A DNA stretch of 32,000 bases from Pseudodesulfovibrio piezophilus C1TLV30 (GCF_000341895.1 NC_020409.1:3182411-3214410); one strand, 5' to 3'; numbered from the stretch's first letter, positions 7,431-25,462 are shown. Notes: generated from the sequence alone by a model not told the origin. A program made the numbers and translations.

Positions 7431-7484
7431 TCGGTTGAGGTCAGTCTTTTTTCATAATGCATTCATACTTTCAAGGAGGGCGGC

Positions 7485-7706
7485 ATGACTCTGAATGAAC
7501 TCAAGCCAGGCTCCCGTTGCACCATGACGGACCTGACCGCAGTCGGTGCTCTCGGGCAACGGCTCATGGATCTTGGATTTTATCCTGGGGCTGAAATTGA
7601 GGTGGTGCGCAATGCTCCACTGGTCGATCCAGTGGAATTGCACCTTGACGGATACCATGTTTCGATTCGCCACAATGAAGCCAAGCATATTGAGGTGGAG
7701 AGATAA
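7485..7706 (+). CDS. feoA: FeoA-family protein (copy 2)
   Basis: 73 aa: LNELKPGSRCTMTDL....LGQRLMDLGFYPGAEIEVVRNAPLVDPVELHLDGYHVSIRHNEAKHIEV. SD AAGGAGG lies upstream. The stop overlaps the feoB start by 1 nt. Confidence 0.85.
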   Translation: MTLNELKPGSRCTMTDLTAVGALGQRLMDLGFYPGAEIEVVRNAPLVDPVELHLDGYHVSIRHNEAKHIEVER

Positions 7707-11464: not shown

Positions 11465-11505
11465 CGAATAAGCTCTCTCTGTCTCTCTAGCGAGCGCCTC
11501 CAGAA

Positions 11506-11541
11506 GGTGTGGCGGGTTTTACCATACCAGCCCGCCACACC
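11506..11541 (+). terminator. Strong hairpin after the DUF4198-like gene (possible terminator or processing site; no U-tail)
   Basis: GGTGTGGCGGG / CCCGCCACACC form a perfect 11-bp stem with a 14-nt loop. No T-run follows, so intrinsic termination is uncertain. Confidence 0.35.
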
Positions 11542-11558
11542 ACGACATTTCAAAGCAG

Positions 11559-12248
11559 GTGAACATGACGAACCTCCCTCAGATGCGAGCCATTGAACTT
11601 GAGGATATTTGCGAATTCCAGGTGCTGGATGCAGTCCAGATGACGGTACACCAATTCGCGGAATCCTTGAGCCATATCATTGATGCCAAGGATCACAGTA
11701 CTCACTCCCATTCCGAGGAGGTCGCCGTCATGTCCCAAACCATTGGCCAGCAAATGGGGCTGAGCGCAAAGCAGTCGGACATTCTTCACCTTGCAGGGCA
11801 TCTGCATGATATCGGGAAGGTCGGTATTCAGGATGCCATCCTGAAGAAACGTGGACCATTGACTCGAAAGGAATTCAATATCATCAAGAAACACCCGGTC
11901 ATAGGCGCACAAATCATGGCTCCAGTCGCTCCCTTTGCCGGAAAGAACGGCATTGTAAAAATGATTCTGCACCATCATGAACGGTTTGACGGGAATGGCT
12001 ATCCGGATGGACTTCGTGCGCGGAATATTCCTCTTGGCGCTCGTATTATCGCTGTGGCGGACAGTCTTTCAGCCATGTTGCAGGACCGTCCCTATCGACG
12101 GGCCATGTTTTATGAAGAAGCGCTCCAGGAAATCTACGATTGTTCCGGTTCTCAGTTTGATCCGGTGGTTGTCAATGCCCTGTTCAGTGTGAAGGGAATT
12201 ATCAAGACCTATTTGTGTTCATTGCATAAGAATAAGGATGTTGCATGA
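11559..12248 (+). CDS. Stand-alone HD-GYP domain protein (c-di-GMP phosphodiesterase family)
   Basis: 229 aa with HSEEVA, HLHDIGKVGI and HHHERFDGNGYPDGL (HD plus GYP motifs). No receiver or sensor domain. The listed start is GTG at 11559, and an in-frame ATG lies at 11565. Confidence 0.85.
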   Translation: MNMTNLPQMRAIELEDICEFQVLDAVQMTVHQFAESLSHIIDAKDHSTHSHSEEVAVMSQTIGQQMGLSAKQSDILHLAGHLHDIGKVGIQDAILKKRGPLTRKEFNIIKKHPVIGAQIMAPVAPFAGKNGIVKMILHHHERFDGNGYPDGLRARNIPLGARIIAVADSLSAMLQDRPYRRAMFYEEALQEIYDCSGSQFDPVVVNALFSVKGIIKTYLCSLHKNKDVA

Positions 12249-12913
12249 TCATGGGGAAGAAACACCCTTTGCCTCTTTGTGAGGTCATCGTCAAACCATC
12301 CGGTTCCGGGTTGGAAACCCGTCTTGTTCTTTTGGCGGCACTCCTGACAGTGATAGTGTGTGGGGGCATCATCATGGTTCGTCATGCCACGGCTACGGTC
12401 CAGGAAGCTCCCTCATGGCAGATGAATGCATTTACTGATCTTCGCTCTGAAGAGTTGGCAACATTCAACGCCTTGTATACAGCAGCTCCCGAAATTGAGG
12501 CATTTCATGAGGATGAAGACGGGCGTTGGCCTTCGGTCACTGAACTCAGAGCCGAGTTTGTCCCTCCTTTTGTGCAGGATGCGGCATGGCAACGAAATGG
12601 TGGGTTGGATTGGGCGCGAAGTCTCATCAGTACCAGTGACAAGCATATCGCTTGCTATCTCGGAAGTCCCATGGAGCAGGATAAATCCGGCTCTTTCCTG
12701 CTGATCATGTTGCATGGACATGTCAAAAAGGAAGGGAACGCAGGGGCATCCTCGCATGTGCCTTACGAGATCTGGCTTCACGCTTCACCCGTGGCCGAAT
12801 TCCCTGATTTGGTCACGGATCAGGCACTCATCAACGCGGGCTGGCGTGTGGTGGTGGCTCGAAAAGGTGAGGATGAAATGCGGCGGACCAAAGGTGAGGG
12901 GTATATCCAATGA
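12245..12913 (+). CDS. Uncharacterised single-pass membrane protein, translationally coupled between the HD-GYP gene and the ABC transporter
   Basis: 222 aa. One TM helix (LVLLAALLTVIVCGGIIMV) followed by a soluble domain of about 160 aa with no motif I recognise. ATGA overlaps occur at both ends (12245-12248 and 12910-12913). Confidence 0.55.
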   Translation: MIMGKKHPLPLCEVIVKPSGSGLETRLVLLAALLTVIVCGGIIMVRHATATVQEAPSWQMNAFTDLRSEELATFNALYTAAPEIEAFHEDEDGRWPSVTELRAEFVPPFVQDAAWQRNGGLDWARSLISTSDKHIACYLGSPMEQDKSGSFLLIMLHGHVKKEGNAGASSHVPYEIWLHASPVAEFPDLVTDQALINAGWRVVVARKGEDEMRRTKGEGYIQ

Positions 12914-13839
12914 TCAAAAAAATGTTTTTCCCTCTGGTATACATGAGCTTTATGTTTTTGTTCATTTCGGCGGGTGTTGTTTCCGCAGGGACAACGCTTC
13001 CTCGTATCGGGGTCACTTTGCATCCGTATTACAGTTTTGTCGCGGCGATTGTCGGTAACACGGCTGAAGTGGTCCCTCTTATTGGCGAGGGGTTCAACCC
13101 GCATAATTATCGGCCGCAACCTGAAGATATCAAGCGCTCCATGACCCTGGATGCCTTGGTCGTCAATGGGATAGGTCACGATGAATTCGCTTTTGAAATA
13201 GTGGAGGCGGCGGATATGAAAGGCACGTTGCCCATCATTTTTGCCAACAAGGATGTCTCCCTGATTCCCGTGGGAGGTCATCTTGATGGTAAAAAAATCG
13301 TGAATCCGCACACTTTTGTCTCGGTGACTGCTTCAGTCCGCCAGATATATACCATCGCTCAGGGACTGAGTGAGTTGTTTCCCGAGCATGCCGATCTCTA
13401 TCGCAGGAATGCCAGACGTTATGCAGCTCGACTCAGGCGTATGAAGGCGGAATACATGGAGCGTCTCGCCATGTTGCCGAGCATGGATTTTCGATGTGCG
13501 ACCATTCACGGTGGGTATGACTATCTTTTTCAGGATTTCGGACTTCAGGTCACGGCAGTGATTGAGCCCGGACATGGTCTCAAACCTACGGCAAGCCAAC
13601 TTGCCAGGACCATTGACGAAATAAAGCGGCTTGGGGTGGACGTTATTTTCACTGAAATGGCTTTCCCTGATAAATACGTGGATACCATTCACGAAGAAAC
13701 AGGGATTCGCATCAGACATCTCTCTCATTTGACAAGCGGCGAATATAGCAAAGACGGCTTTGAAAAGGGGCTGCGGGCCAATCTGGAAGCTCTGACCAGC
13801 GCCCTGATCGAAGCTCAAAGTTCCAAGCAAGGAGGTTGA
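12910..13839 (+). CDS. Metal ABC transporter substrate-binding protein (ZnuA/TroA cluster A-I)
   Basis: 309 aa with a signal peptide. The three canonical His-containing blocks are present: TLHPYYSF, NPHNYRP and NPHTFVS. Metal specificity (Zn, Mn or Fe) cannot be determined from sequence. Confidence 0.85.
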   Translation: MIKKMFFPLVYMSFMFLFISAGVVSAGTTLPRIGVTLHPYYSFVAAIVGNTAEVVPLIGEGFNPHNYRPQPEDIKRSMTLDALVVNGIGHDEFAFEIVEAADMKGTLPIIFANKDVSLIPVGGHLDGKKIVNPHTFVSVTASVRQIYTIAQGLSELFPEHADLYRRNARRYAARLRRMKAEYMERLAMLPSMDFRCATIHGGYDYLFQDFGLQVTAVIEPGHGLKPTASQLARTIDEIKRLGVDVIFTEMAFPDKYVDTIHEETGIRIRHLSHLTSGEYSKDGFEKGLRANLEALTSALIEAQSSKQGG

Positions 13840-13840
13840 G

Positions 13841-14569
13841 ATGACAGTCACCCATATGACGGGCGGTCCCTCTGTGCACTTCGAGAATGTCGGTCTTTCA
13901 CTTGGCGGAAACACCATCCTCGACGGGGTGAATTTTACGGTGGCAGCCGGAACCATTCATTGTGTTATCGGTCCCAATGGAGGGGGGAAGACTTCACTCA
14001 TTCGGTCCCTGCTCGGTCAAATGCCCCATACTGGGGATATTCGTATCTGCTGGGGGAATGATTGGACCATGGGGTATGTGCCTCAGGCCCTTGAGTTCGA
14101 TGATTCACTCCCAATGACCGTTGCCGATTTCATGGCGATGATCGGGCAACGTCATCGTCCTGCTTTCATGGGCTTGAAACGGGATAGCCGGACTTTGGTT
14201 GAGAATGTTCTGGCTCGAGTTGACATGCTCGACAAAAGAGATCGACCTTTTGGCTCCCTGTCCGGCGGTGAACGGCAACGCGTGCTGCTGGCACAGGCCC
14301 TGATGCCTTCCCCGAAACTGCTCGTGCTGGATGAACCCGCATCCGGGTTGGACAAAGCAGGTGCTGCCGTCATGCATTCCATTGTTCAGGAATTGTCGGA
14401 CAACGGAACGACTGTCCTTATCATTCATCATGATCTTGGTATAGTTCGGGAAATAGCCCATGGGGTGACCTGCATAAATCAACACATGCTTTTCTCCGGC
14501 GATCCGCAGCAGGAATTGACCTCGGAGCGCATTTTTACCATCTTCTCCTCTTCTGCAAAGGCGGCTTGA
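13841..14569 (+). CDS. Metal ABC transporter ATP-binding protein
   Basis: Walker A GPNGGGKTS, signature LSGGERQR, Walker B LLVLDEP, H-loop IIHHD. Confidence 0.9.
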   Translation: MTVTHMTGGPSVHFENVGLSLGGNTILDGVNFTVAAGTIHCVIGPNGGGKTSLIRSLLGQMPHTGDIRICWGNDWTMGYVPQALEFDDSLPMTVADFMAMIGQRHRPAFMGLKRDSRTLVENVLARVDMLDKRDRPFGSLSGGERQRVLLAQALMPSPKLLVLDEPASGLDKAGAAVMHSIVQELSDNGTTVLIIHHDLGIVREIAHGVTCINQHMLFSGDPQQELTSERIFTIFSSSAKAA

Positions 14570-15480
14570 TTTTCATGCATTCAGTGTACGATTTTATTCG
14601 GTCTCCACTTATGGAGTGGGGCAGGGCTGGGGTATTGCCGGAATTTTTCCAATACGCTTTTGTGGTCAATGCGCTTTTGTGTGCTTTGATTGCCGGGCCG
14701 TTGCTGGGTGGGATAGGAACCATGGTCGTTTCCAAACGATTGGCTTTTTTTTCCCAGGCAGTGGGGCAGGCTGCCTTGACCGGTGTCGCCCTTGGCGTGC
14801 TTCTCGGGGAGCCTGTCACAGCTCCGTATGCCTCTCTTTTCGGTTTTTGCATTCTTTTTGCCTTGACCATGAATTATACCAGGAACCGCACGCGTATGAA
14901 GCAGGATACTGTTATCGGTGTCTTTCTCTCTATTTCGCTGGCAGTGGGTGCCTGCGTTTTGCTTTATGTCACAGCTCGGGTCAACATGCATGTCCTCGAC
15001 AATATCCTGTTCGGTTCCATTCTGACGGTCAATGACACTGATATGAATGTCCTTCTGGGTATCGGGGCCATTTGTATGGCGGTGGGGATTCCCACCTATA
15101 ATAATATGCTGCTGTCCAGTTTCAATTCCAGTCTGGCTCAGGTTCGCGGGGTCAATGCTACCCTGCACGATTATATCTTCGTGCTCATGATTACTGTGAT
15201 TACCGTAGCGTGCCTCAAGATCGTCGGCGCGGTACTGGTGGAAGCGCTTCTGATCATTCCTGCGGCTTCGGCACGGAATATCAGCCGTTCCATCAAGGGT
15301 TTTTTCGGATACAGTGTCGTTTTTGCCACCGTGAGTTGCCTGCTTGGCATCATTGTCCCCATGCAGTTTGAAATACCGGTGCCGTCCGGTGGGGCAATTA
15401 TTCTGGTCGCGTCATTCCTTTTTGCGCTTACTGCCGGAATTCGGGCTGTTTCCGGTTCCTACAAGGAGGCCTCGGCATGA
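14566..15480 (+). CDS. Metal ABC transporter permease (ZnuB/TroC type)
   Basis: 304-aa polytopic hydrophobic protein. The start overlaps the ATPase stop and the stop overlaps the next start. Confidence 0.9.
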   Translation: MIFMHSVYDFIRSPLMEWGRAGVLPEFFQYAFVVNALLCALIAGPLLGGIGTMVVSKRLAFFSQAVGQAALTGVALGVLLGEPVTAPYASLFGFCILFALTMNYTRNRTRMKQDTVIGVFLSISLAVGACVLLYVTARVNMHVLDNILFGSILTVNDTDMNVLLGIGAICMAVGIPTYNNMLLSSFNSSLAQVRGVNATLHDYIFVLMITVITVACLKIVGAVLVEALLIIPAASARNISRSIKGFFGYSVVFATVSCLLGIIVPMQFEIPVPSGGAIILVASFLFALTAGIRAVSGSYKEASA

Positions 15481-16412
15481 TCAAAAAACTGACATTGGCA
15501 CTCTTTGTTTCACTTCTTGTCGTTGTCGTCTCCAAGGCAGCAGTCCCTGATCTTCCGGCTCAGAGGAGCGAAACCATAGTCCTTGCCTCTCTTGATGTTG
15601 TGCAAGCACTTGGAGAGGCGCTGACGGAGCAGACATCCATCAGGGTTCTCAATGCCATTCCGCAGGGGTATTCAATGCAGGGGCAAAGGGCATACCTGAA
15701 GAAGCATCAGGACATCTTTTCCCAATTGGCAGAGCATGCAGCAGGGGTGCTTTCCGTGACCTCTGCCTGGAGCGATGATCCTCTTTATCAGTGGGCTCGA
15801 CGAGCCAATATCCGAATCGTGAATATTGATGTGACCAAGCCTCTTGATGGATATGGTGCGGGCGTGCCTCTGCTCCAGGTGGAGGGAGCGTATTCGCCGT
15901 ATGTCTGGCGCAGTCCCGCTAACCTGACTCGTATGGCCGTGATTGCGGCTGATGATCTATCCCGTCTGGTTCCCCATGAAGCGCAGACCATAGAGGAGAA
16001 TCTCAAGAAGTTGCAATCCGCATTGTTTCAATTGCGCAGTCGTTATGAAAACGCCTTCACCCAAATGGAGTTGGTTGATCTTGCTGCATTGACGGGTGAC
16101 TACACCTATCTCATGGATGAATTCGGCCTGGGCATTCGCTTTTATACCCTCAAACCCGAAGGACAGTGGACCGCAGACGAAGAACAAGCTCTTTCTCAAC
16201 ATCTGAGTCAATCAGGGATTGTCGGGGTCATTTGTCCATGGGAGCCGGAAGAAAAGGGACGTCAGGTTATCAGGAAAGGCGGCGCTGTCCCCATCGTGTT
16301 GAAAAAGTATGTGTCCTCACTGGGTGTGGACCCGGTTACATCTTTGGTTCGTTGGTATGACGATAATTTATCCCAGTTGCTTGGGGCGCTGAAAACTACA
16401 ACAGGAGGCTGA
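15477..16412 (+). CDS. Second ZnuA/TroA-fold binding-protein paralogue lacking the canonical His ligands
   Basis: 311 aa with a signal or anchor helix. It has the same overall block order as the first binding protein. The His blocks are replaced: LASLDVV for LHPYYSF, IPQGYSM for NPHNYRP, and SPYVWRSP for NPHTFVS. Confidence 0.65.
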   Translation: MIKKLTLALFVSLLVVVVSKAAVPDLPAQRSETIVLASLDVVQALGEALTEQTSIRVLNAIPQGYSMQGQRAYLKKHQDIFSQLAEHAAGVLSVTSAWSDDPLYQWARRANIRIVNIDVTKPLDGYGAGVPLLQVEGAYSPYVWRSPANLTRMAVIAADDLSRLVPHEAQTIEENLKKLQSALFQLRSRYENAFTQMELVDLAALTGDYTYLMDEFGLGIRFYTLKPEGQWTADEEQALSQHLSQSGIVGVICPWEPEEKGRQVIRKGGAVPIVLKKYVSSLGVDPVTSLVRWYDDNLSQLLGALKTTTGG

Positions 16413-16585
16413 TGATGGATACGGTCATTGCTCTTATCATTATTGGTGCGGCTGCTTGTTTTCTTTTTTTCAAAATGAAGGCCAAGTTTTCATCCAAGGG
16501 AGGATGCGGGTGCGGATGCGGGTGCGGTACGGAAAGTTGCTGCGATGGTGATGAGGAAAAACACTCGGTACCGCATGATGACTAA
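16412..16585 (+). CDS. Cys-rich single-TM miniprotein (FeoB-associated Cys-rich membrane protein type); too short for the ORF track
   Basis: 57 aa read by hand: MMDTVIALIIIGAAACFLFFKMKAKFSSKGGCGCGCGCGTESCCDGDEEKHSVPHDD. The ATG overlaps the TGA of the upstream gene (16410-16414). TAA lies at 16583-16585, in frame. The (GC)4 run is encoded by a 12-nt tandem GGATGCGGGTGC x2 at 16502-16525. Confidence 0.6.
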   Translation: MMDTVIALIIIGAAACFLFFKMKAKFSSKGGCGCGCGCGTESCCDGDEEKHSVPHDD

Positions 16586-16748
16586 GTTGAAAAGCGTGAT
16601 TTGAAAGGGCTTGGCTCTTTGTGACGGGCGCGGTATGGTCAATCACTGCTCTCTCATGTTCCCCTGTTGATTGATCCTTTTCGGGTTCTTTTGGGAGAAT
16701 TTGCATGAGAGCAGGCTCTCATGTAGTAATCCGCAACAGGAGGGAAGA

Positions 16749-17057
16749 ATGAACTTTGCTACAATTGCCGCGTTAAGAAAATATTTGTCGATTAAACACA
16801 GTTTGCCGGGCCGGATAAGGATCAAGTTCTCGCTTGCCATCATGTCTGATCCCGAGGCGCTCAAGCTTGCCCAGTCTCCGCCGGAGATGCCCGAAGCTGT
16901 TACGGATACGCAATTGAATTTGTTTTCTCGTACTTTATTGATTGAATATGACGCAGAGCGAGTGCCACCTGCCTTGCTTGAAGAACTGATCACAACAGAT
17001 GATGATGTGAGGGCAGCAGAAGTTGTCGAAGAATTACACCAAGCTCTCTTTGTCTAG
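16749..17057 (+). CDS. Small soluble HMA-like (Cys-less, GRIR-motif) protein
   Basis: 102 aa from ATG 16749, with SD CAGGAGGG upstream. The track start at 16671 is a TTG lying in the leader. The motif SLPGRIRIKF followed by ...TLLIEYD resembles the N-terminus of the ATPase at 18365 (SIPGRIRFES). There is no CxxC. Confidence 0.55.
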   Translation: MNFATIAALRKYLSIKHSLPGRIRIKFSLAIMSDPEALKLAQSPPEMPEAVTDTQLNLFSRTLLIEYDAERVPPALLEELITTDDDVRAAEVVEELHQALFV

Positions 17058-17083
17058 ATAATCTGGCAGAGATCCTTTTCCAG

Positions 17084-17109
17084 AAGCGCGGCGGATGCCG
17101 CGCTTTTTT
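17084..17109 (+). terminator. Rho-independent terminator
   Basis: AAGCGCGGC-ggat-GCCGCGCTT stem-loop followed by a T6 run (17104-17109). Confidence 0.8.
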
Positions 17110-17500
17110 CATACCTTTCCGGCTTGTTTCAAGTTGACTCTGATAATCGTTTTCAATAATGTCCTCTCGACCCGTATGGAATCGGAAGTGGCACTGTGTT
17201 CTTTTGTAAAGCGAGCCAAATGTCCGATTGGTGTCTTCACACAAAGAACAAAAAAGGTGTGCCGATGTCCCGAAAGTCAGAGAATACATTTGAAACCCTC
17301 CCCAGTCCTGTTGATCATCTTGTCAACGGTGTCCAAATCAAGCGAAACCCCAGAGACCGCAAGAAGTTCTTTCTGCGCTCCGGGTGTGTCCTTGTTTCCC
17401 TCTGCGGTTTGCTCGCGTGCAATTCGTTGGGCTTGAGTCTTGGGCGTGTTGTCTGCCACGGCCTCTTGATTGCTTCCCTGGGTGCCCCCTCTCGAAAGGT

Positions 17501-17537
17501 GAATTGATTTTATAACGGTTACCGTTAAAAATCATTC
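17501..17537. promoter_or_regulatory. 37-bp AT-rich palindrome (candidate Fur-family operator) ahead of the ATPase operon
   Basis: GAATTGATTTTA-TAACGGT-T-ACCGTTA-AAAATCATTC. The core 17513-17527 is a perfect 7-1-7 palindrome. The arms resemble Fur half-sites (AATCATT). It shares the 8-mer ATGAGAAT (reverse strand, 17532-17539) with the repeat at 10592. Confidence 0.45.
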
Positions 17538-17608
17538 TCATGGTTGTACCATCTTTCTACACTATGGTAGCAGTATTCATCCTGCAACGTGAAGGAGTCT
17601 TGAAGAAA

Positions 17609-17803
17609 ATGAATGAGTTGACGGAAAAATTACTATTGGTTGCTGCGGGGGCTGCAGTTGGGGCGCTCGGTTATATGGCCGTGAAACATCCTGATGAACT
17701 CAAGGAGTTCATGGGAGATGCGGCTGAGCTTGGGCAGAAATTTTTTGAGAAAACCATGGCTGACGTGGCCGATAAAATGGGTCATTCGAAGGACGCCGCT
17801 TAA
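17609..17803 (+). CDS. Small glycine-zipper membrane protein (FezA/FezC-like or YtxH-like candidate)
   Basis: 64 aa from ATG 17609, with GGAG at 17594-17597. The track start at 17540 adds an unlikely 23 aa. N-terminal helix LLLVAAGAAVGALGYMAV, then an amphipathic acidic helix (PDELKEFMGDAAELGQKFFEKTMADVADKM). Confidence 0.6.
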   Translation: MNELTEKLLLVAAGAAVGALGYMAVKHPDELKEFMGDAAELGQKFFEKTMADVADKMGHSKDAA

Positions 17804-17814
17804 AGGAAGAGACT

Positions 17815-18276
17815 ATGGCTATCAACAGAATCGCATATTTGATTGCCGGAGCTGCGCTTGGAGCTGCCGGTATGGCATTGGCCAAGGAAGGCAAAGGGGA
17901 AAACCTGCTGCAATCTCTGGTACAAGGGGGACATGGACTGACTGACAAGTTGCTTGGGACAGTGGAGACCATCAAGGAAGACGTGGAAGATTATCTGGCC
18001 GAGGCCAAGTTCGCGCATGAGCAGAAGGCGAAAGAGGCTGCGAAGCCCGCTGCAGCCGCTGCTGCCACGGCAACTGTAGCCACAACAGCTGCCAAGGCTG
18101 CCACAAAGAAGCCCACCGCAAAGAAATCGGCAGCGAAAAAAACTCCAGCCAAGAAAGCAGCACCCAAAAAGTCTGCGGCCAAGAAACCCGCTGCCAGGAA
18201 GCCTGCGGTGAAAAAGACGACGGCAAAAAAAAATAGTCCGAAGAAGACGGCGACCAAAGCTCCTACCGGCGAATAG
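17815..18276 (+). CDS. Glycine-zipper membrane protein with a histone-H1-like Lys/Ala/Pro-rich C-terminal tail
   Basis: 153 aa with SD AAGGAAGAG upstream. N-terminal helix IAYLIAGAALGAAGMALA, an amphipathic segment, then from about aa 71 a tail rich in KKP/AKK repeats (TKKPTAKKSAAKKTPAKKAAPKKSAAKKPAARKPAVKKTTAKKNSPKK). Confidence 0.7.
   Translation: MAINRIAYLIAGAALGAAGMALAKEGKGENLLQSLVQGGHGLTDKLLGTVETIKEDVEDYLAEAKFAHEQKAKEAAKPAAAAAATATVATTAAKAATKKPTAKKSAAKKTPAKKAAPKKSAAKKPAARKPAVKKTTAKKNSPKKTATKAPTGE
18025..18273 (+). repeat. Low-complexity coding repeat: (A/T/S/P)-A-K-K units forming the poly-basic tail
   Basis: Reiterated AAGAA(A/G)...GC(N) codon units. The antisense ORF 17991..18347 is its mirror artefact. 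Confidence 0.8.
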
Positions 18277-18364
18277 TTCGAATCCATTGGTTCTTTCGGT
18301 GCATGGCAGGCGTGGTTTTCTGCTTCACCGGCCCCATTAACAAGCATGAGATCATGGTTGGTGT

Positions 18365-20503
18365 ATGAATATTGTCCGTAGCATTCCCGGTCGCATCCGT
18401 TTTGAGTCGGAATCCGAGCAGGCAGTCCTGTATATACAGGAGTATCTTCAGAAAGTCGTAGGTGATGATCTTGGCGAGATAGAGTTCAGCTACAGTCAAC
18501 GGTCAGGTCGTGGACTGGCGCTGTTTTCCCCTTGCCCGAATCTGACTGCGAGGGTGCTGGAAGCCATGGGGGCCGCTATGGCCGAGCCTCCTGTTCCGGA
18601 ACTTCCTACCTGTCGAACCGCCGCTCCAGGCGATGAGATGGCATGTACATTGCCTGCGCTTGGATCAGCCTTATATGAAGCTGAAACTATTGAGAATCCT
18701 TTTTGGATTGTTGCCAAGAAAGTGCTCAATTTTTACATGACCCGGCTGTTCATGCCTGCGACGATTCGTCCTTACTGGACAGTCTTCAGCGTTTCACCTT
18801 TGATCTTCGAGGGAGTCCGATCTTTATTCCAGCGTCAATTGAACGTTGCCGTGCTTGATGCCGCAGCCATCGGGTCTGCCCTGGCCATGCGGGACTTCAA
18901 TACTGCGGGAACCATTCATTTGTTGCTCGACATCAGTGAAACCCTGGAAGACTGGACTCGAGAGAAGTCTCGAAGTGACCTCGCTTCCTTATTTCGGGGT
19001 GATGGCAAACCCGTCTGGGTTTTACGCAAGGGTGAAGAGGTCCAGACTCCGCAGGAGAACCTTGTTTCTGGAGATTTGGTTATTGTCCGTTCCGGGGCGC
19101 GTATTCCTGTGGATGGAGTTGTTGCCGATGGTACGGCCATGGTCAACCAGGCTTCCATGACGGGAGAGCCGTTGTCTGTGAAGCGTGGACCGGGCAAGGA
19201 AGTGTATGCCGGGACAGTCGTTGAGGAAGGCAAGATCATTATTCTCTCCGAAGGAGTTGGTGATGAAACCCGATTCGCCAAAATTGCTCAGGTTATTGCT
19301 GATTCCGAAAACATGAAGGCGGACATTCACGGCCAAGCTGTGAAGTTGGCCGACAAGATTGTTCCATATTCCTTTCTGCTTTCCGGGGTGATTTTCGCAG
19401 TGACCAGGAACTGGATGCAGGCCGCAGCCGTTCTTATGGCGGATTATTCCTGTGCCATAAAACTCGCGACACCTCTTGCCGTGCGTTCGGCCATGTTGGA
19501 GTCTGCCCACTGCGGAGCGTTGATCAAAGGGGGAAAATTTATTGAGCAATTGGCTCAGGTCGATGCCATTGTGCTGGACAAGACCGGCACCCTGACCAAG
19601 GCCTCTCCTGAGGTCGTGGATATCTGCCCGGTCAATGGCTACACCCGTGAATTTATCCTGCGCAATGCCGCCTGCATGGAGGAACATTTCCCCCATCCTG
19701 TGGCAGACGCGGTTGTCAGGAAAGCCGATGAAGAAGGTTTCAATCATGATGAAAAGCATGCAGAAGTTGAATATATTCTTGCCCATGGCATAGCGACGAC
19801 GCTGGATGGTCAACGCATGATTCTCGGCAGCAGGCACTTTGTCCACGAGGATGAGGGGATTGATTTGGACGAAGCTGAGGCTCAGATCTCTCGGTGTTCC
19901 GAGAGCGGATTGTCCACACTGTATATGGCTGTCGGTGGGAAGCTCGCCGGTGTCATTGCTCTGCAAGACCCGCTCAGGGAGTCGGCCTATCGGTTCATCA
20001 GGCGGCTGGAGAACATGGGCATGAAGCGGATCATCATGCTGACCGGTGATGGAGAAGCAACGGCCAGGAATGTTGCCGCTGAATTGGATATTCAGGAATA
20101 CTATGCGCAGGTTTTGCCGGACGAAAAGACTGATCTGGTGGATTCCCTGCGAGAGGAAGGGTATACTGTGGCCATGGTGGGTGACGGTATCAATGATTCT
20201 GCCGCACTAAGTCGAGCTGATGTGGGAGTCTCCATGAAGCATGGAGCCGATATTGCCCAGGAGGCGTGTGATGTGATGCTGACAAGCGAACGCCTGGACA
20301 GTCTCATGGATGCCATGTCCCTTTCGAAGATGGTCATGCGTCGGATTAAGCGGAATTATCGATTTATTGTCGGGAGCAATACTCTTTTCATCGGTCTCGG
20401 TGTGGCAGGGATCATTTCTCCGGCCATGCTTGCCTTTTTGCATAATTCAGGAACGGTTTTGACCTGCGCTCACAGTATGCGCCCCATGCTCCCTGAACAA
20501 TAA
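18365..20503 (+). CDS. P1B-type heavy-metal ATPase with an S-C-A membrane motif (P1B-6 / FezB-like) and an N-terminal Cys-less HMA-like domain
   Basis: 712 aa. TGE (SMTGEPLSV), DKTGT (19577-19591), MLTGDGEATA and VGDGINDSAAL. The membrane helix before the P-domain reads ADYSCAIKLATPLAV, with S-C-A at 19448-19456 in place of CPC. Only two hydrophobic helices precede the actuator domain. The N-terminus SIPGRIRFESE...GLALFSP is HMA-like without CxxC. Confidence 0.9.
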   Translation: MNIVRSIPGRIRFESESEQAVLYIQEYLQKVVGDDLGEIEFSYSQRSGRGLALFSPCPNLTARVLEAMGAAMAEPPVPELPTCRTAAPGDEMACTLPALGSALYEAETIENPFWIVAKKVLNFYMTRLFMPATIRPYWTVFSVSPLIFEGVRSLFQRQLNVAVLDAAAIGSALAMRDFNTAGTIHLLLDISETLEDWTREKSRSDLASLFRGDGKPVWVLRKGEEVQTPQENLVSGDLVIVRSGARIPVDGVVADGTAMVNQASMTGEPLSVKRGPGKEVYAGTVVEEGKIIILSEGVGDETRFAKIAQVIADSENMKADIHGQAVKLADKIVPYSFLLSGVIFAVTRNWMQAAAVLMADYSCAIKLATPLAVRSAMLESAHCGALIKGGKFIEQLAQVDAIVLDKTGTLTKASPEVVDICPVNGYTREFILRNAACMEEHFPHPVADAVVRKADEEGFNHDEKHAEVEYILAHGIATTLDGQRMILGSRHFVHEDEGIDLDEAEAQISRCSESGLSTLYMAVGGKLAGVIALQDPLRESAYRFIRRLENMGMKRIIMLTGDGEATARNVAAELDIQEYYAQVLPDEKTDLVDSLREEGYTVAMVGDGINDSAALSRADVGVSMKHGADIAQEACDVMLTSERLDSLMDAMSLSKMVMRRIKRNYRFIVGSNTLFIGLGVAGIISPAMLAFLHNSGTVLTCAHSMRPMLPEQ

Positions 20504-20716
20504 GCCACCCTCGAAATTCCATGTCGGAAGTCCTCTCTGAGAGGGATGCCTGACAGATGGTGATGACCTCGTTGCGTTCTTGCCACAAAAGATCCGATCC
20601 AGATGTGTTGAAAAACATGCTGGAGCGGATCTTTTTAATGCGCTCCTCAGAGCATCTCGAATGTCTGCCGGGTCGGATTCTTCTGTGGACCGTCTTCCTT
20701 TTTCAGAAATTCCCCT

Positions 20717-20749
20717 TTGGATTGTGTCGAAATTATAATATACTTTATC
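20717..20749 (+). promoter_or_regulatory. Candidate promoter with an overlapping Fur-box-like sequence ahead of the Gly-rich/CDF genes
   Basis: TTGGAT (20717-20722), a 16-nt spacer, then TATACT (20739-20744). AATTATAATATACTTTATC (20731-20749) matches 13/19 of the classical Fur box by hand alignment. Confidence 0.35.
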
Positions 20750-20891
20750 GGTATGGAATAATTGAACTTATGAGACTTGTTGGAGAATTGATGAAGGGTG
20801 GTTCTCGTTCTCATTTTTTGCAGGGAACGGCAAATCAGAGTAGGTTACAGGGGAGTGATAACACTGTGACAGATTATCAAGGAGTTGGGTC

Positions 20892-21503
20892 ATGAAGCAA
20901 TTTCTTCCAAAGAATCCGTTTGCGGCTGCTGGTGTGGGAGCACTGGTTGGCGCAGGAATAGCCGGGTACAAAATGTGGTCATTGTATAAGGGCGGTGAAG
21001 TTTCCAAGCAGGAAGCAGTCGCTGGTGTCGTCAAGCAGAGTCTCTTGTTTGGCGGCGTTGCAGCAGCGACGACCGTGGCTGGAGGGCAGGGCGGCGGCGG
21101 TATAGGTATTGCTGCCATGTCATTAGTCGGCATGGGGGGCCGAGGAGGAGGTGGCGGTGGAATGTTGCCAGGACTTTTCTCCGCTTCCCTTGGTGGAGGT
21201 CGAGGAGGCGGTGGAGGCATGGGCGGCTCGGGCGGCGGTGGTCGCGGTGGTATGGGGGGGAATGGAGGATCCGGTGCTGGCGGCGGAGGAAGTCGTGGGA
21301 ATCAAAGCACAGGAATTCTTGATTCAATATCCAACGCCGTGAGTGGTCTTTTGGTTTCCGATGAGCCGAGCGAACAGGCGCTTGAAGAGTCGGTGGATCG
21401 AGCCTTGGAAAAAGGAACCGTTTCGGCTACCGGTCTTGACGAAGAAGGGCTTGAAAGCGATGAGGATCGTGATGAGGAATCTTCAGAGGAAGAGAAAGCT
21501 TAG
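20892..21503 (+). CDS. Glycine-zipper membrane protein with a Gly/Arg-rich disordered region and an acidic C-terminal tail
   Basis: 203 aa. N-terminal helix PFAAAGVGALVGAGIAGY and a second hydrophobic stretch SLLFGGVAAATTVAG. Residues about 64-136 are roughly 70% Gly with RGG units (GGRGGGGGGM, GGGRGGGGGMGGSGGGGRGGMGGNGGSGAGGGGSRG). Residues 157-203 are Asp/Glu/Ser-rich (DEEGLESDEDRDEESSEEEKA). Confidence 0.65.
   Translation: MKQFLPKNPFAAAGVGALVGAGIAGYKMWSLYKGGEVSKQEAVAGVVKQSLLFGGVAAATTVAGGQGGGGIGIAAMSLVGMGGRGGGGGGMLPGLFSASLGGGRGGGGGMGGSGGGGRGGMGGNGGSGAGGGGSRGNQSTGILDSISNAVSGLLVSDEPSEQALEESVDRALEKGTVSATGLDEEGLESDEDRDEESSEEEKA
21081..21299 (+). repeat. Low-complexity (GGN)n coding repeat
   Basis: GGC/GGT/GGA/GGG runs. 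They produce the mirror-image poly-Pro ORF on the minus strand (20768..21220). Confidence 0.8.
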
Positions 21504-21532
21504 AAGAATCAGGCCTAACCGGAGAGACTGTC

Positions 21533-22708
21533 ATGAATGAGCGTACTGTCACTGTCGAGGGTGATAACGATCTTGTCGCGGCACGGAAAAGAGCAGCTCT
21601 TTCGGTACTGCTCAACATGATACTTGCTCTGGTAAAAGGTGGTGCCGGGATTCTTTCCGGCAGTGCCGCCCTTATAGGTGATGCGGTCCACTCCGCGGCC
21701 GATGTTTTTGCATCCGGGGCTGCACTTGTCGGTCTGTGGATTGCCGGTAAAAAGCACCCGTCATTTCCTTTCGGATTATACAAGGCCGAAAATATCGCGA
21801 CGTTGGTCATTGCTTTGGCCGTGATTATGGTTGCGTACGAGATTGGCCGGGATGCGCTCATTGGTGGTGAAACCATACCGGACACTGCTCTTGCCTTGCC
21901 GGTTGCCATTGGCTCGTTGATTGTTGCCGTTGTCTTTGGGCTTTTTCAGCTTCGATGCGGGAAAAAACTTGGGTCCCCGGCCTTGATCGCCGATGCGCGG
22001 GACTATCTGGTGGATGGTGCATCCACGGGAGTGGTGATCATTGGTTTGATCGGAGCCAGTTTTGGTTTTGCTTTGGATCGATGGGCTGCCGGTGCGGTTT
22101 CACTTTTTGTGCTTTGGGCCGGTTTCGAGCTTTTGGTTGATGCGGTGCGAGATTTACTTGATGCCGCCATGCCTCGGGAGTTGGTGCACGATCTCAGTTC
22201 GCTTGTGGAAAAACAACCTTTGGTCTCACGAGTGCTCGGCTGTGTCGGGCGGCAGGCCGGTGGTCGTTATATCGCCAATCTTGATATCCTTCTGCGCACC
22301 AATGACCATCTGGTCGCTGACAGGGTGGCAGATCGTCTGGAAGTGCTGGTGAAGAAAGAGTTTCCGCGAATTGTCATGGTCCATGTGAGGACACACTTCG
22401 GACACAGTGAGTCTCATCGACGGATCACGCCTGTCATTGATCATGGTGGAGCCATGGCCGAAGGACTGGCTTCTGCCCCTTGGTTCATGGTGGAGGATTT
22501 GGATGGACAGACCAAAGCAGTTACCGAGTGCGCATTTGTCAGGAATCCTCACAGGGATGCGCCTAAACGTCGTGGACTGATGGTCGGGCAGATGCTTATG
22601 GAGCTTAAACCTGATCAGGTCATCAGGCCTGATGGACATGCCGGAACAGCTCTTGCCCTGTTGGAAGAGGCCGGAGTGGATATTCTCCGTATAGGTGAGG
22701 AAAAGTAA
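21533..22708 (+). CDS. Cation diffusion facilitator (CDF) transporter fused to a C-terminal NifX/NifB-like (FeMo-cofactor-binding family) domain
   Basis: 391 aa. CDF TM2 motif SAALIGDAVHSAAD and TM5 motif LIADARDYLVD. The cytoplasmic CDF C-domain covers LLDAAMP...IVMVHV. From about H295 (nt 22415) there is an extra module of about 95 aa (ITPVIDHGG...APWFMVEDLDGQ...FVRNPH...LKPDQVI...ALLEEAGVDILR) whose pattern resembles the dinitrogenase Fe-Mo cofactor biosynthesis (NifX/NafY/NifB-C) fold. Confidence 0.8.
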   Translation: MNERTVTVEGDNDLVAARKRAALSVLLNMILALVKGGAGILSGSAALIGDAVHSAADVFASGAALVGLWIAGKKHPSFPFGLYKAENIATLVIALAVIMVAYEIGRDALIGGETIPDTALALPVAIGSLIVAVVFGLFQLRCGKKLGSPALIADARDYLVDGASTGVVIIGLIGASFGFALDRWAAGAVSLFVLWAGFELLVDAVRDLLDAAMPRELVHDLSSLVEKQPLVSRVLGCVGRQAGGRYIANLDILLRTNDHLVADRVADRLEVLVKKEFPRIVMVHVRTHFGHSESHRRITPVIDHGGAMAEGLASAPWFMVEDLDGQTKAVTECAFVRNPHRDAPKRRGLMVGQMLMELKPDQVIRPDGHAGTALALLEEAGVDILRIGEEK

Positions 22709-22742
22709 GACGCCTTCAATAATAAAAAGCGCAGGCGTCTTA
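22706..22742. terminator. Hairpin between convergent genes (weak candidate bidirectional terminator)
   Basis: TAAGACGCC ... GGCGTCTTA form a 9-bp stem with a 19-nt A-rich loop. It starts at the CDF stop codon. Confidence 0.3.
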
Positions 22743-22760
22743 CCGTTTGATTTGAGCGGG

Positions 22761-23192
22761 CTACTTGGCGAGCGTGCGACGGTTCTGATAGATGTGCATT
22801 CCGAGCAGGCTGAGGAATGCGCTGCCCGCCACAACATGCCAGCGTTCGGAATAGTAGACGATTCCGATGGCTGCAATCAAGGATGCCGCTAACCCTCGCT
22901 TGACGTATCTGCGCGCCTTGCGGCCATTGAGTGTCTTCTGGGCACTGGCCATATTGGCCTTGACCTTGTTCATGTCGATGCCAAGGCCTTCGGCGATCTT
23001 GGTCAGAATATTCTCGGCAGTGATTTTGGTCTTGTCGAAAAGAATGAGAATGCTTCCCACACGTTTGTTGACCTGTACCTGAATCACCCCTTTGACTTCC
23101 AGCAGGGAATCTCGGACCTTGTAACCGAAATCGGCAACTTTGAGGGCCTCGTTTCTGAACCGGATACGTCCTTCTTCTGCGACTGCGTTCAT
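22761..23192 (-). CDS. Cys-less HMA-like (GRIR-motif) domain protein with an Arg-rich linker and two C-terminal TM helices
   Basis: 143 aa from ATG 23192, with SD AAGGAGAGAGAC upstream. The track start at 23225 is a GTG. Sequence reads EEGRIRFRNEALK...VKGVIQVQVNKRVGSILILFD, then RKARRYVKRG, then LAASLIAAIGIVYY and VVAGSAFLSLLGMHIY. Confidence 0.6.
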   Translation of the reverse strand: MNAVAEEGRIRFRNEALKVADFGYKVRDSLLEVKGVIQVQVNKRVGSILILFDKTKITAENILTKIAEGLGIDMNKVKANMASAQKTLNGRKARRYVKRGLAASLIAAIGIVYYSERWHVVAGSAFLSLLGMHIYQNRRTLAK

Positions 23193-23267
23193 GTCTCTCT
23201 CCTTGCTTTGTAACTGTGCTGTCACAAATAGAGTTTTGCACGAAAAGGCGAAGGGGTGTCAATCATC

Positions 23268-23286
23268 GGGAATTATTATCAACAAT
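23268..23286 (-). promoter_or_regulatory. Fur-box-like sequence upstream of the HMA-like membrane protein gene
   Basis: The minus-strand sequence ATTGTTGATAATAATTCCC matches 12/19 of the classical Fur box and has a perfect TGATAAT core. It lies 76-94 nt upstream of ATG 23192. Confidence 0.3.
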
Positions 23287-23366: not shown

Positions 23367-24746
23367 TTAGTAAGAATACGGCAGAGTGATATTCATGCAC
23401 ACACATCCGGATTCATAGGTTGCCTGAATGGTTCCGCCATGCTTCTCAACTATTTTTTTTGTTGCAGCCAATCCTAGCCCTGTGCCTGCTTCCCTGCCTT
23501 TGTCCAGTCGTTGAAAGGGGGTGAACATGTCAACCAGATCTTTTTTCGACAGTGGGGCATGGGAATTACTCAGGTTTATTTCGATATTCCCATCATGCAA
23601 AGCGACTCGCGCTGACATGGTGCCGTTCGGGGCAGTGTATTTGATGGCATTGCCAAGCAGATTTTCCAGAACAACACTGATTGCGTGGGCGTTGCACACG
23701 TATCCCGGAATACCCTCAAGGCTGGTGGTCACGGTCAGGGCTTTCTGTTCAATCATGGTATCGAATTGATCGATCTTGTGCTGGAAGCACTGTGCGACAT
23801 CTATGGAATCAGTTCGTGGTGGCGGTTCTCGGAGATCAAGCTTTGAAAAGGCGAGCAAATGACCGATAATGGCATCCATGTTCTCGATTTCATTTTCTAT
23901 CTTTGCAACTTGTCGATCAAGGGTATCCTTGGCACTGGTTGTATCCCTTTCCATGATCAACTGCAGGGAGATGCGCATCCTGGCGAGGGGGGATCGCAAC
24001 TCATGCGAAACATGTGCTGTCAGTTCCTTGCCGCTTTTCACCATTTCTTCCAAATGATTGGCCATACGGTTGAACTTGCGGGCGAGAACCGCGACTTCAT
24101 CCTTGCCTTTTTCCGGCACTCGTTGGGAAAAATCTCCTTTTCCAAGACGGTCCGCCGCTTCACTCAATTGCAGGATGGGACGGGTTATTCGTCTTGAGAC
24201 GGGAATGATGAACAGGGCACTGAGTGCGGTGAGAAGAAGTAACCCCTTGAAAAACCATACTTCTTCCTTGCGTTGTCGCTTGCCCATGAGAACATGGGTG
24301 GTCAGCGGCGGCTGATTGCGCAAAACCATGGGCATTTCGATGTATATTCTGCGATATGAGTTGGTGTGTATCGCAAAGAGTTTGACCGATGTCCCTTCCA
24401 GCGTGACAGGTGATAACTCTCCATCCACTTCAGGAGGGGTTCCTTCGAAGTTGCTGACTATCAGGTTTTTTGCGTCATCCGTCAGCCAGATGTGGGCATT
24501 GAACCCTTTACCCAGCAATTTTAGAAGAGGAGTGAGTGTTCGCTTAATGGATTGGGGAGAGGTTTCCTTCCCTTCCATCTCCCTCTGGATGAGCATGGCC
24601 CCCAGTTCTGCTTTTTCCACCAGATTCCGAATCATTGGTGGTGGCATTTCATTGGAAAGGACAATGCTGAAGACAATGGCATCCGCCGCTATGAGAACAG
24701 CGACAAAAGCCAGGAAGAGTTTGAGGTAGAGGCGGCTGATGCTCAT
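23367..24746 (-). CDS. Sensor histidine kinase (periplasmic sensor, HAMP, HisKA, HATPase)
   Basis: 459 aa. TM1, a periplasmic region of about 150 aa, TM2, and HAMP (ITRPILQLSEAADRLGKGDFSQRV). H-box AHVSHELRSPLARM, N-box LLGNAIKY, G-boxes GTGLGLAATKKIVEKHGG. Confidence 0.9.
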   Translation of the reverse strand: MSISRLYLKLFLAFVAVLIAADAIVFSIVLSNEMPPPMIRNLVEKAELGAMLIQREMEGKETSPQSIKRTLTPLLKLLGKGFNAHIWLTDDAKNLIVSNFEGTPPEVDGELSPVTLEGTSVKLFAIHTNSYRRIYIEMPMVLRNQPPLTTHVLMGKRQRKEEVWFFKGLLLLTALSALFIIPVSRRITRPILQLSEAADRLGKGDFSQRVPEKGKDEVAVLARKFNRMANHLEEMVKSGKELTAHVSHELRSPLARMRISLQLIMERDTTSAKDTLDRQVAKIENEIENMDAIIGHLLAFSKLDLREPPPRTDSIDVAQCFQHKIDQFDTMIEQKALTVTTSLEGIPGYVCNAHAISVVLENLLGNAIKYTAPNGTMSARVALHDGNIEINLSNSHAPLSKKDLVDMFTPFQRLDKGREAGTGLGLAATKKIVEKHGGTIQATYESGCVCMNITLPYSY

Positions 24747-25462
24747 GATGCCCCCAGGAACATATACCCTGTTCCCCAGACAGTTTTGATGCGACTGGCG
24801 TGCGCTTCATACGGCTTGAGCAGGGAACGAAGCTTGTGGACATGGACATCAATGCTGCGGTCAAAGGCGGAAAAATCCTTGTCCCAGACCAGATTCATCA
24901 ATTCGTCGCGGGTCATGGCGGTATCCGGGTTATTCATGAAGACCTTGAGCAGTCGATACTCCGTGGCGGACAGTTCCAGTTCATCTTCTTCGACTGTCAC
25001 GACCTGGCGGGCAGTATTCAGGCTGAGTCCGCCACACTCGATCAGTCTGGTCGAGTGTCTGGTGCCGTTCTCAGAGGCGATAATTTCGTACCGTCTCAGG
25101 ATTGCTTTGATTCTGGCTAATAATTCTCTGGGGTTGAATGGCTTGGGCATATAGTCGTCTGCCCCCAGTTCCAGGCCGACGATACGGTCCGTATCTTCTC
25201 CCTTGGCCGTCAGCATGATCACAGGGACCGATGAAACAGTCCTCAGTTCGCCCAGCACCTGCAAACCATCTTTGCCCGGCATCATGATGTCGAGAATGAC
25301 CAGACATGGCTTTTCTGCTGTGACGGTTTCCACCACCTTTTCTCCCGAGGGGAGTGTGAGCACTTTGAACCCGTAGCCCGTCAAGTACTCGGTGATGAGT
25401 TCCCGGAGTTCATCATCGTCATCAATTATGAGAATCGCGCCATTGTTATCCATGGTGTTCAC
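24743..25462 (-). CDS. OmpR/PhoB-family response regulator
   Basis: 239 aa. Receiver domain with ILIIDDDDELRE, LVILDIMMPGKDG and MLTAKG. Winged-helix output domain with LSATEYRLLKVF and IKTVWGTGYMF. The listed start is GTG at 25462, and an in-frame ATG lies at 25453. The gene overlaps the kinase gene by 4 nt. Confidence 0.9.
   Translation of the reverse strand: MNTMDNNGAILIIDDDDELRELITEYLTGYGFKVLTLPSGEKVVETVTAEKPCLVILDIMMPGKDGLQVLGELRTVSSVPVIMLTAKGEDTDRIVGLELGADDYMPKPFNPRELLARIKAILRRYEIIASENGTRHSTRLIECGGLSLNTARQVVTVEEDELELSATEYRLLKVFMNNPDTAMTRDELMNLVWDKDFSAFDRSIDVHVHKLRSLLKPYEAHASRIKTVWGTGYMFLGAS

Follow-up and report, generated by a model that had tools for sequence, protein, structure and literature searches.

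The question raised by positions 16749-23286 of the 32,000-nucleotide stretch analysed here (Pseudodesulfovibrio piezophilus C1TLV30, NC_020409.1:3182411-3214410; the whole stretch is called the window) is whether they hold a fez-type gene cluster for the iron organelle called the ferrosome, and whether the genes beyond the described core are part of an expanded system, as an earlier reading made without databases (the sequence-only reading) had proposed. Our analysis indicates that the region, which runs from BN4_20117 to BN4_20124, is very probably a fez (ferrosome) gene cluster with clade-specific additions. The core of the locus is nothing new; the novelty is its clade-specific extension, consisting of the genes here called gX and g5 and, in a sub-clade, g6.

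Grant & Komeili (bioRxiv 10.1101/2020.01.10.902569) defined FezB by D[Y/F]SCA, HNxxT, and an R-rich N-terminus, and fez clusters by GxxxG and R-rich companion proteins. BN4_20121 of P. piezophilus C1TLV30 is tabulated in their supplement as a FezB homologue (712 amino acids (aa), MNIVRSIPGRIRFES, DYSCAIK, HNSGT) and is one of the 304 FezB homologues in the authors' phylogeny. The same tables place BN4_20117 (g1; SIKHSLPGRIRIKFS) in R-rich group 3-1, BN4_20119 (g2) in GxxxG group 2-11, BN4_20120 (g3; YLIAGAALGAAGMA) in GxxxG group 2-10, and BN4_20124 (g7; MNAVAEEGRIRFRNE) in R-rich group 3-2. The central proposal of a fez-type locus is thus borne out by five genes in the published tables, and because these five genes of the genome had already been catalogued, the core finding is correct but already known. 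BN4_20118 (probably gX), BN4_20122 (g5), and BN4_20123 (g6) were not found in the available portion of the tables, which also held no "cation diffusion" or "efflux" entry. A literature search returned no paper joining ferrosomes to MamC homologues, none describing a cation diffusion facilitator (CDF) inside a fez cluster, and none mentioning the locus tags of the cluster.

For the comparison with relatives, 80 FezB loci and ten further contexts were examined by tblastn (loci are denoted by L numbers). The genome collection was scanned with FezB in the absence of P. piezophilus itself, the best match being 71% identical, and a metagenome scan with the CDF protein gave two loci, one of which duplicated L084. 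The fezB gene (BN4_20121, 18365-20503, plus strand) encodes a P1B-6 P-type ATPase of 712 aa. All the motifs by which the ATPase had been recognised were found at their places: DKTGT (19577-19591), TGE (19160-19168), GDGIND (20180-20197), and S-C-A (19448-19456), the last lying within DYSCA (19442-19456, aa 360-364), the P1B-6 membrane signature. Furthermore, the HNxxT of the last transmembrane (TM) helix is present as HNSGT (20441-20455, aa 693-697), and the N-terminus is R-rich, with GRIR (18389-18400) inside PGRIRF (aa 8-13) and no CxxC in aa 1-110. The two helices proposed ahead of the actuator domain fit the hydropathy profile and the TIGR01525 and CopA alignments, which begin at about residue 152-162. 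The protein matched TIGR01525 (heavy-metal P1B) at 1.6e-147, and its nearest solved structures, CopA, CadA, and ZntA, were reached only at E 1e-63 to 1e-81. Among the 92 ATPase open reading frames (ORFs) of related loci, D[YF]SCA is common to 89 and HNxxT to 88.

The R-rich companions, including one of the FezC type, are g1 and g7. The former (BN4_20117, 16749-17057, plus strand) encodes a soluble R-rich protein of 102 aa with PGRIRIKF that matches HMA_2 (PF19991) at 1.2e-8. The latter (BN4_20124, 22761-23192, minus strand), whose start was corrected to 23192 from a conserved ribosome-binding site (RBS) and ATG, encodes 143 aa with an EEGRIRFRN HMA_2 domain (1e-10 to PF19991) and a C-terminal hydrophobic hairpin; its two hydrophobic segments (aa 97-116 and 118-135, by hydropathy) behind the HMA domain give the FezC-type layout. 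GRIR also occurs in the FezB N-terminus, which aligns to g7 at E 3e-5. Three Cys-less HMA-like GRIR domains had been claimed for the region; g1 and g7 indeed contain 0 Cys, whereas the FezB N-terminus has Cys, though no CxxC.

Two small genes stand upstream of fezB on the plus strand. The product of g2 (BN4_20119, 17609-17803) is a GxxxG-helix protein of 64 aa, LVAAGAAVGALGYM, whose start at 17609 is backed by an RBS and an ATG kept in relatives, and g2 is retained upstream of a FezA-type gene in L001-L006, L082, L084, and L089. The product of g3 (BN4_20120, 17815-18276) is of FezA type and consists of an N-terminal GxxxG helix, a VETIKEDVEDYLAEAK helix, and a Lys/Ala/Pro tail of 78 aa with a net charge of +22. 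The Gly-zipper hydrophobic helix that had been noticed at the beginning of g2, g3, and g5 (20892-21503) was confirmed, and small GxxxG proteins beside fezB, which mark fez clusters, are represented by g2 (GAAVG) and g3 (GAALGAAG). The N-terminal 75 aa of g3, comprising the GxxxG helix and a VETLKEDxEDYxAEA helix, form a conserved FezA-type module that was located directly 5' of fezB in 29/29 loci tested, fezABC-type loci included. Conservation of the small ORFs next to the ATPase, which had been suggested as a check, was therefore found for this module in every locus tested.

The g3-type tail is Lys/Ala/Pro-rich in the window, L082, L084, and L001-L004, acidic in L005-L009 and L011, and essentially absent in L010 and in the five fezABC-type loci extracted (L012, L015, L019, L021, and L023). 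A Lys tail was considered as a hallmark of the FezA type and rejected, as the tail is acidic or absent in many orthologues; matches of g3 to histone-H1-like models were below the cut-off and compositional. In Halodesulfovibrio (L006 7723-8538; L005 9588-9938), a Lys-rich stretch is C-terminal on the g5-type protein and an acidic tail is on the FezA-type protein, an arrangement that is the reverse of that in the window, as if charged tails were exchangeable among the membrane proteins of the cluster. PhaM-type Lys/Ala/Pro (histone-H1-like) tails tether storage granules to the nucleoid. A likeness of the g3 tail to these is predicted from (P/A)AKK-type repeats on an organelle-associated protein; the g3 tail differs in varying independently of its domain, and in L006 the Lys stretch is carried by the g5-type protein instead.

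The closest systems are fez of D. magneticus RS-1 (fezABC) and the six-gene operons of Shewanella putrefaciens and Rhodopseudomonas palustris. In common with them, the window has a P1B-6 ATPase with D[Y/F]SCA, HNxxT, and N-terminal RxR, a FezA-type GxxxG protein directly upstream of fezB, a FezC-type protein (R-rich HMA plus two hydrophobic segments) together with a soluble R-rich protein, and Fur and Feo genes in the neighbourhood. It differs in that its FezC-type gene is read from the other strand, its FezA-type protein bears the +22 Lys/Ala/Pro tail, and gX, the MamC-like g5, and the CDF-NifX protein g6 are outside the published groups in the tables as available; conversely, FezH, DUF4405, FeoA-domain, and DUF2202 proteins were all missing from inside the window cluster.

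In many Desulfovibrionaceae loci the fezABC layout is found, with a g7-like gene 3' of fezB on the same strand, whereas the layout of the window's clade is g1-(gX)-g2-g3-fezB with g7 reversed. The full order g1-gX-g2-g3-fezB-g5-g6 with reversed g7 is shared by the window, L082, L084, and L089 at 74-87% protein identity, and the flanks of L084 are unlike those of the window on both sides. D. oxyclinae (L090) and Pseudodesulfovibrio sp. zrk46 (L091) carry fezB-g5-g7 (reversed) without a CDF gene, and the Halodesulfovibrio-type loci L005, L006, and L093 have g5 upstream of g1 and again no CDF gene. As for single genes, g1 is kept in L001, L003-L006, L082, L084, L089, L090, L091, and L093; g5 occurs with fez in nine of ten contexts, the exception (L094) being the most divergent member; and the g6 CDF gene was found within fez in four genomes only, all of them closely related. 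The suggested expanded system is partly borne out: it stands for g5 and the CDF fusion, which are absent from the tables as available and kept in place in relatives, whereas the poly-Lys-tailed g3, which had also been counted among the extras, is a FezA-type core member and no accessory.

The first of the additions, gX (probably BN4_20118; 17265-17507, plus strand), had been overlooked in the first reading. It fills the g1-g2 spacer of about 550 bp and encodes a hydrophobic Cys/His membrane protein of 80 aa. The ORF is conserved codon by codon, varying at third positions, its RBS and ATG are kept as well, and the core SL(C/A)GxxxC(N/H)..LGxxLG..(V/I)CHG retains two Cys and one His. By tblastn and a regular-expression search, gX was also found in L082, L084, L089, L090, L005, L006, and L093; in D. 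oxyclinae (L090) it is present although the gene is uncalled there. No Pfam or NCBIfam family matched gX, g2, g5, or the N-terminal part of g3, in a Pfam set without PF26373. Rfam gave no match over the whole window; the g1-g2 spacer is occupied by a small ORF and by no known RNA.

The second addition, g5 (BN4_20122, 20892-21503, plus strand), encodes a protein of 203 aa that we regard as a probable true homologue of MamC, although it is not a MamC equivalog. It consists of a TM1-loop-TM2 unit (about aa 9-83), a Gly/Arg-rich low-complexity middle, a conserved (S/T)G(I/L)LDSISNAV motif, and a C-terminal region that is acidic, with a net charge of -17 over aa 140-203. Homologues are few: the N-terminal 96 aa had just eight at E <= 1e-3 in 5.8 billion proteins, and in an exhaustive profile search of 1.84 billion representatives, 13 clusters reached E <= 1e-10. 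A precomputed match to PF26373 (MamC) exists for six of eight close g5 homologues, and none is on record for the window g5; the MamC proteins retrieved from Magnetospirillum, Magnetococcus MC-1, and Magnetofaba all bear this domain. When the g5 family was aligned by hhalign with 19 real MamC proteins, a match of 90.7% (E 1.2e-6) was obtained, which was ungapped over 62 columns (g5 11-72 against MamC 15-76) and held TM1, loop, and TM2 in register, with K27, K33, E41-A42, and K48 of the loop conserved; both profiles were shallow (Neff 1.6 and 2.4).

It could be argued that this likeness reflects compositional convergence of Gly/Ala-rich two-helix proteins, and that g5 is just another FezA-like GxxxG protein. 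The FezA family, which is equally Gly/Ala-rich, provides a control on this point, and it scored 1% against MamC and 0.2% against g5 by hhalign; on the same negative g5-FezA comparison, the idea that g5 contains a third copy of the FezA-type helix was rejected. Most g5-family members also scored 10-25 bits higher with the MamC hidden Markov model (HMM) than their reversed or 10-residue-window-shuffled versions, g5-family ORFs filled five of the top seven ranks among 13,818 ORFs, and the Pfam matches of the six homologues point in the same direction. In addition, the two families are bridged by P0221, which reached E 6.4e-4 when the g5 profile was run on the whole library and scored 29.5 bits with the NCBIfam MamC model. 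This protein of 153 aa (L092 80-541, on a 1.2-kb contig) has a MamC-like KYLYDEV motif and a g3-like Lys-rich tail.

Several results favour convergence and thereby weigh against homology. The window g5 itself scored 9.0 bits with the MamC HMM, below the highest shuffle (10.1), and did not match NF038051, the MamC equivalog model with a 100-bit cut-off, to which its relatives P0122-P0124 gave 16-17 bits; as a positive control, this model gave 135.8 bits for a MamC sequence. The shallow profiles mentioned above belong here too, as does the HMMER search with the g5 profile, which reached zero bona fide MamC among 1.84 billion proteins. The AlphaFold2 model of the g5 N-terminus (helices 9-33, 39-63, and 70-79) was of low confidence, with a predicted local distance difference test score (pLDDT) of 56.6; it is compatible with a helical hairpin and too weak as evidence. 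As for the genomic setting, g5 has fez genes as neighbours, in the window as well as in eight other loci, and is not in a magnetosome island. No magnetosome genes were found in the window, and the host is not known to be magnetotactic. On balance, convergence appears unlikely, and a remote MamC-family membership of g5 remains the preferred explanation.

MamC has two TM helices and a charged helical loop that contacts magnetite via two acidic residues (PMC7604359). Both MamC (Mms13) and g5 have two Gly-rich hydrophobic helices joined by an equally long charged helical loop, and one of the magnetite-contact acidic positions (MamC E45) corresponds to g5 E41, with three loop Lys kept. However, D49 of MamC, the other contact position, has a Gly as its counterpart in g5, KYAWDRG is absent from g5, and g5 adds the long Gly/Arg-rich and acidic extension. 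Each protein is encoded beside genes of an iron-mineral organelle, but that of g5 is a fez cluster.

The third addition, g6 (BN4_20123, plus strand), encodes a CDF protein of six TM helices and a ZT_dimer-like cytoplasmic domain (21533-22408), followed by a C-terminal domain (22409-22708, aa 293-391). The CDF assignment follows from TIGR01297 (170.7 bits, cut-off 82.35) and PF01545 (7e-39, 134.1 bits, cut-off 26.6). The best sub-families were MamB (NF033616, 119 bits) and MamM (NF033615, 100 bits), both under the 350 bits of an equivalog, and the closest solved structure was FieF/YiiP (2qfi alignment). Site A of g6 is formed by H53/D57 in TM2 and D157/D161 in TM5, which align to YiiP D45/D49 and H153/D157; that is, D-D/H-D in YiiP is H-D/D-D in g6, and the metal is therefore not fixed by the site. 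A DxxxD in TM5 is typical of Mn-type CDFs. The six-TM core and the cytoplasmic dimerisation domain are common to MamB, MamM, FieF, and g6, and transport out of the cytoplasm is expected for all. Compared with MamB and MamM, g6 has the additional C-terminal domain, and its family is widespread among non-magnetotactic Desulfobacterota.

The sequence-only reading had noticed an extra C-terminal domain on the CDF transporter, and this could be substantiated as about 100 additional residues with a predicted NifX-like fold. The domain alone scored 13.9 bits with PF02579 (Nitro_FeMo-Co), under the cut-off of 26.3, whereas 21/31 g6-family members matched this model (best 7.6e-10), and a profile of the C-terminal family reached MTH1175 (1eo1) in the PDB at E 9.8e-6. 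The AlphaFold2 model of the domain had a pLDDT of 94.6. With this model, Foldseek retrieved TM1816, PH0822, the D. gigas orange protein (ORP), TM1290, MTH1175, NifX, and NafY at TM-scores of 0.61-0.77, six family structures being at E <= 1e-3 and TM-scores of 0.65-0.77; 1o13 (0.74) and 2wfb (ORP, 0.72) were among the matches, as were 1t3v, 1eo1, 9ian_F (NifX), and 1p90 (NafY), these six spanning TM-scores of 0.62-0.77. Taken together, the family matches, the profile search, the model, and the Foldseek results confirm a NifX-like domain in the C-terminal 99 aa. The domain contains zero invariant or 90%-conserved Cys/His columns, and because of this a cluster-ligating role is not indicated. The predicted fold and the profile matches are those of NifX, NafY, MTH1175, and ORP (PF02579); in g6, by contrast, a membrane transporter carries the domain as a fusion, and the host genes are unrelated to nitrogenase. 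FmpB, a magnetosome protein of D. magneticus, has a NifX/NifB domain too (PMC4287615), which is a lead and not a test.

The placement of g6 could be incidental: the family is widespread in Desulfobacterota, and the more distant members that were examined are not linked to fez, which speaks against a role in the cluster. On such an explanation, g6, possibly with g5, would be an independent cytoplasmic-membrane Fe/Mn efflux unit that happens to lie inside an iron-homeostasis island. At E <= 1e-10 the fusion family comprises 358 members or more, three more distant ones (54-57% identity) occur in unrelated contexts that are not fez-linked, no CDF gene was found within 10 kb of fezB in the 80 other FezB loci, and two close relatives carry fezB-g5-g7 without it. 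Moreover, g5-g6 has a conserved promoter region of its own with no clear Fur box, and the TM5 DxxxD would suit Mn. On the other side, the CDF gene is inserted between the fez-family genes g5 and g7 with spacers of 29 and 52 bp, the gene order is held in four genomes despite differing flanks, g5 accompanies fezB in nine of its ten contexts and in two different positions, and the scan found no intrinsic terminator between fezB and g5. We consider an independent efflux unit a possible but rather doubtful explanation and favour g6 as a sub-clade addition to the fez cluster. The large family with distant members elsewhere indicates that fez took up an already existing transporter in a single sub-clade.

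Regulation bears on the nature of the metal. The sequence TGAAAATNATTTTCA, which we take to be the Desulfovibrio-type 7-1-7 Fur box, was found nine times in the window at up to 3 mismatches, against 2.25 expected and with nine reached in 0/100 shuffles. The better matches are intergenic; they are placed at fur (5804), feoA (7155), and a DUF4198 operon (10602) and ahead of gX (17141) and g2 (17526). Before gX, the box TGATAATCGTTTTCA (17141-17155, plus strand, 2 mismatches) is in the spacer of a promoter-like TTGACT-17 nt-TAATGT (17134-17162, plus strand), and the whole block has hardly changed in L082 and L084. The second box, TAAAAATCATTCTCA (17526-17540, plus strand, upstream of g2, 2 mismatches), is invariant in three species. 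The E. coli-type 19-bp Fur consensus (36 at 12/19 or better, 11.7 expected) was less discriminating than the 7-1-7 form, and a sigma-70 consensus scan (6 sites, 4.7 expected) was uninformative and missed the conserved TTGACT-17-TAATGT. Fur-box palindromes had been assigned to each transcription unit, which holds for gX and g2 and is overstated for g1, g5, and g7. Upstream of g5, the AT-rich blocks ATAATATACTTTAT..GT(A/C)TG(G/A)AAT and GGTT(C/T)TCGTTCTCA (20731-20815, plus strand), seen in three- and six-genome alignments, have half-site Fur likeness only; the g7 promoter region, conserved and likewise AT-rich, GTTGATAATAATTCCCG followed by TTGACA (23257-23283, minus strand, three-species alignment), departs from the Fur consensus at more than 3 positions; and upstream of g1 no conserved promoter block was found. 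Fur control is well supported for the fezB operon, and the boxes of the other units are weak or absent. The feoAAB genes and two Fur paralogues described as lying immediately upstream are present (5809-10210), but 6.5 kb away, separated from fez by a DUF4198/HD/DUF6162/ZnuA-ABC operon.

It is conceivable that the metal sequestered or exported by the cluster is not iron but, for instance, Mn, Co, or Zn, and that the iron-related neighbours reflect general metal homeostasis; the adjacent ABC system of ZnuA/ABC-3 type and the H-D/D-D site of the CDF protein, which leaves the metal unfixed, could be cited for this. We regard it as very improbable, because Fur-type boxes are common to fez, fur, and feoA in the window, the neighbours comprise feoAAB, two Fur paralogues, and a FeoB-associated protein, and, according to the preprint, the ferrosomes that fez clusters form in three species are rich in iron and are abolished by fez deletion (bioRxiv 10.1101/2020.01.10.902569). 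Iron therefore remains the expected cargo. Against the assignment of the region as a fez cluster with additions, the following should also be set: no Fur-type box at up to 3 mismatches was found before g1, g5, or g7; the tables behind the "not listed" calls for gX, g5, and g6 were partial; and ferrosome formation, the FezB substrate, and the location of every protein in P. piezophilus are inferred by analogy.

The following mechanism is modelled on the fez clusters studied in D. magneticus, S. putrefaciens, and R. palustris, from which we infer it. At low iron, Fur repression would be lifted at the two operators upstream of gX-g2-g3-fezB. When Fe2+ re-enters via FeoAB, FezB would pump cytoplasmic Fe2+ into a small lipid-bounded vesicle, where it would accumulate as granules with a high content of iron, phosphorus, and oxygen. 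The GxxxG proteins and the FezC-type hairpin may build or mark the vesicle membrane, and the R-rich HMA_2 domains may pair with the matching N-terminal domain of FezB. More speculatively, g5 in the MamC topology would expose its loop to the lumen and keep both termini cytoplasmic, and its acidic tail, together with the +22 Lys tail of g3, might form a charged cytoplasmic coat that could serve clustering, tethering, or polyanion binding. Equally speculative is a role of g6 as a second, proton-coupled Fe2+/Mn2+ route into the compartment, gated by the NifX-like domain.

Taking these additions together, we tentatively propose, as a possibility that is still rather less likely than its opposite, that ferrosomes of Pseudodesulfovibrio and Halodesulfovibrio use a true MamC homologue and, in one sub-clade, also a MamB-like CDF protein with a NifX-type domain. 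A MamC-family protein, sometimes accompanied by such a CDF protein, embedded in a ferrosome cluster would link two organelles hitherto treated as genetically distinct, even in one cell. If this is true, ferrosomes and magnetosomes share an ancestral protein toolkit, and "magnetotactic-specific" proteins have relatives that act on non-magnetic iron mineral in non-magnetotactic anaerobes. The additions would also be candidates for gaps in the ferrosome model: g5 for a possible lumen-facing mineral-contact loop, g6 for a second metal route or proton shunt, gX for a Cys/His membrane site, and the oppositely charged disordered tails for organising or tethering the organelle. The published similarity-network survey, whose methods refer to groups "with three or more proteins" (bioRxiv 10.1101/2020.01.10.902569), may for that reason have missed small clade-specific components such as gX, g5, and g6, and comparable additions may hide in other fez clusters.

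Two terminator-like hairpins were recognised in the cluster. One, AGCGCGGC-GGAT-GCCGCGCT followed by a T run (17085-17109, plus strand), is 3' of g1 and was read by eye; the automatic scan did not list it. The other (22710-22732, minus strand) is between the convergent g6 and g7. The fezB-g5 spacer contains about 190 bp of extra sequence (20504-20700), including the hairpin CCTCTCTGAGAGG; this extra sequence is missing from five relatives, and a metagenome-annotated ORF of 112 aa at 20557-20895 is not conserved. Upstream of g1, the palindrome GCATGAGAGCAGGCTCTCATG (16704-16724) is not kept in L082 or L084.

Further upstream, the box at 5804-5818, with 1 mismatch the best of the Fur type in the window, overlaps the start of fur (5809), which suggests fur autoregulation, and the box at 7155-7169 is in the gap separating feoA (7194) from the second fur, a divergent gene (6508-6993, minus strand). 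An operon-like run on the plus strand (10637-16585) encodes DUF4198, HD-domain, DUF6162, ZnuA, ABC ATPase, ABC-3 permease, and second ZnuA proteins and includes a FeoB-associated-like Cys-rich protein of 57 aa (16412-16585; PF12669 24.8 bits, below the cut-off); the Fur-type box at 10602 is ahead of this run, and the block stands in whole or in part beside fez in L082 and L091. A conserved block at 2646-6267 (plus strand) consists of a MoxR-type AAA_3 ATPase, a DUF2201/VWA-like protein, a family-less protein of 153 aa, and Fur. In L084 this MoxR-to-Fur block (2032-5271) is directly upstream of fez g1, and in the window the divergent second fur, feoAAB, and the ABC operon are between the block and fez. 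On the other side of the cluster, an OmpR-type two-component pair (23367-25462, minus strand) is directly upstream of g7 on the same strand, and beyond it a divergent OEP/MFP/RND efflux operon begins at 25602 (plus strand). Both are probably unrelated to fez, because they are found beside it in L082 and not in L084, L090, or L091.

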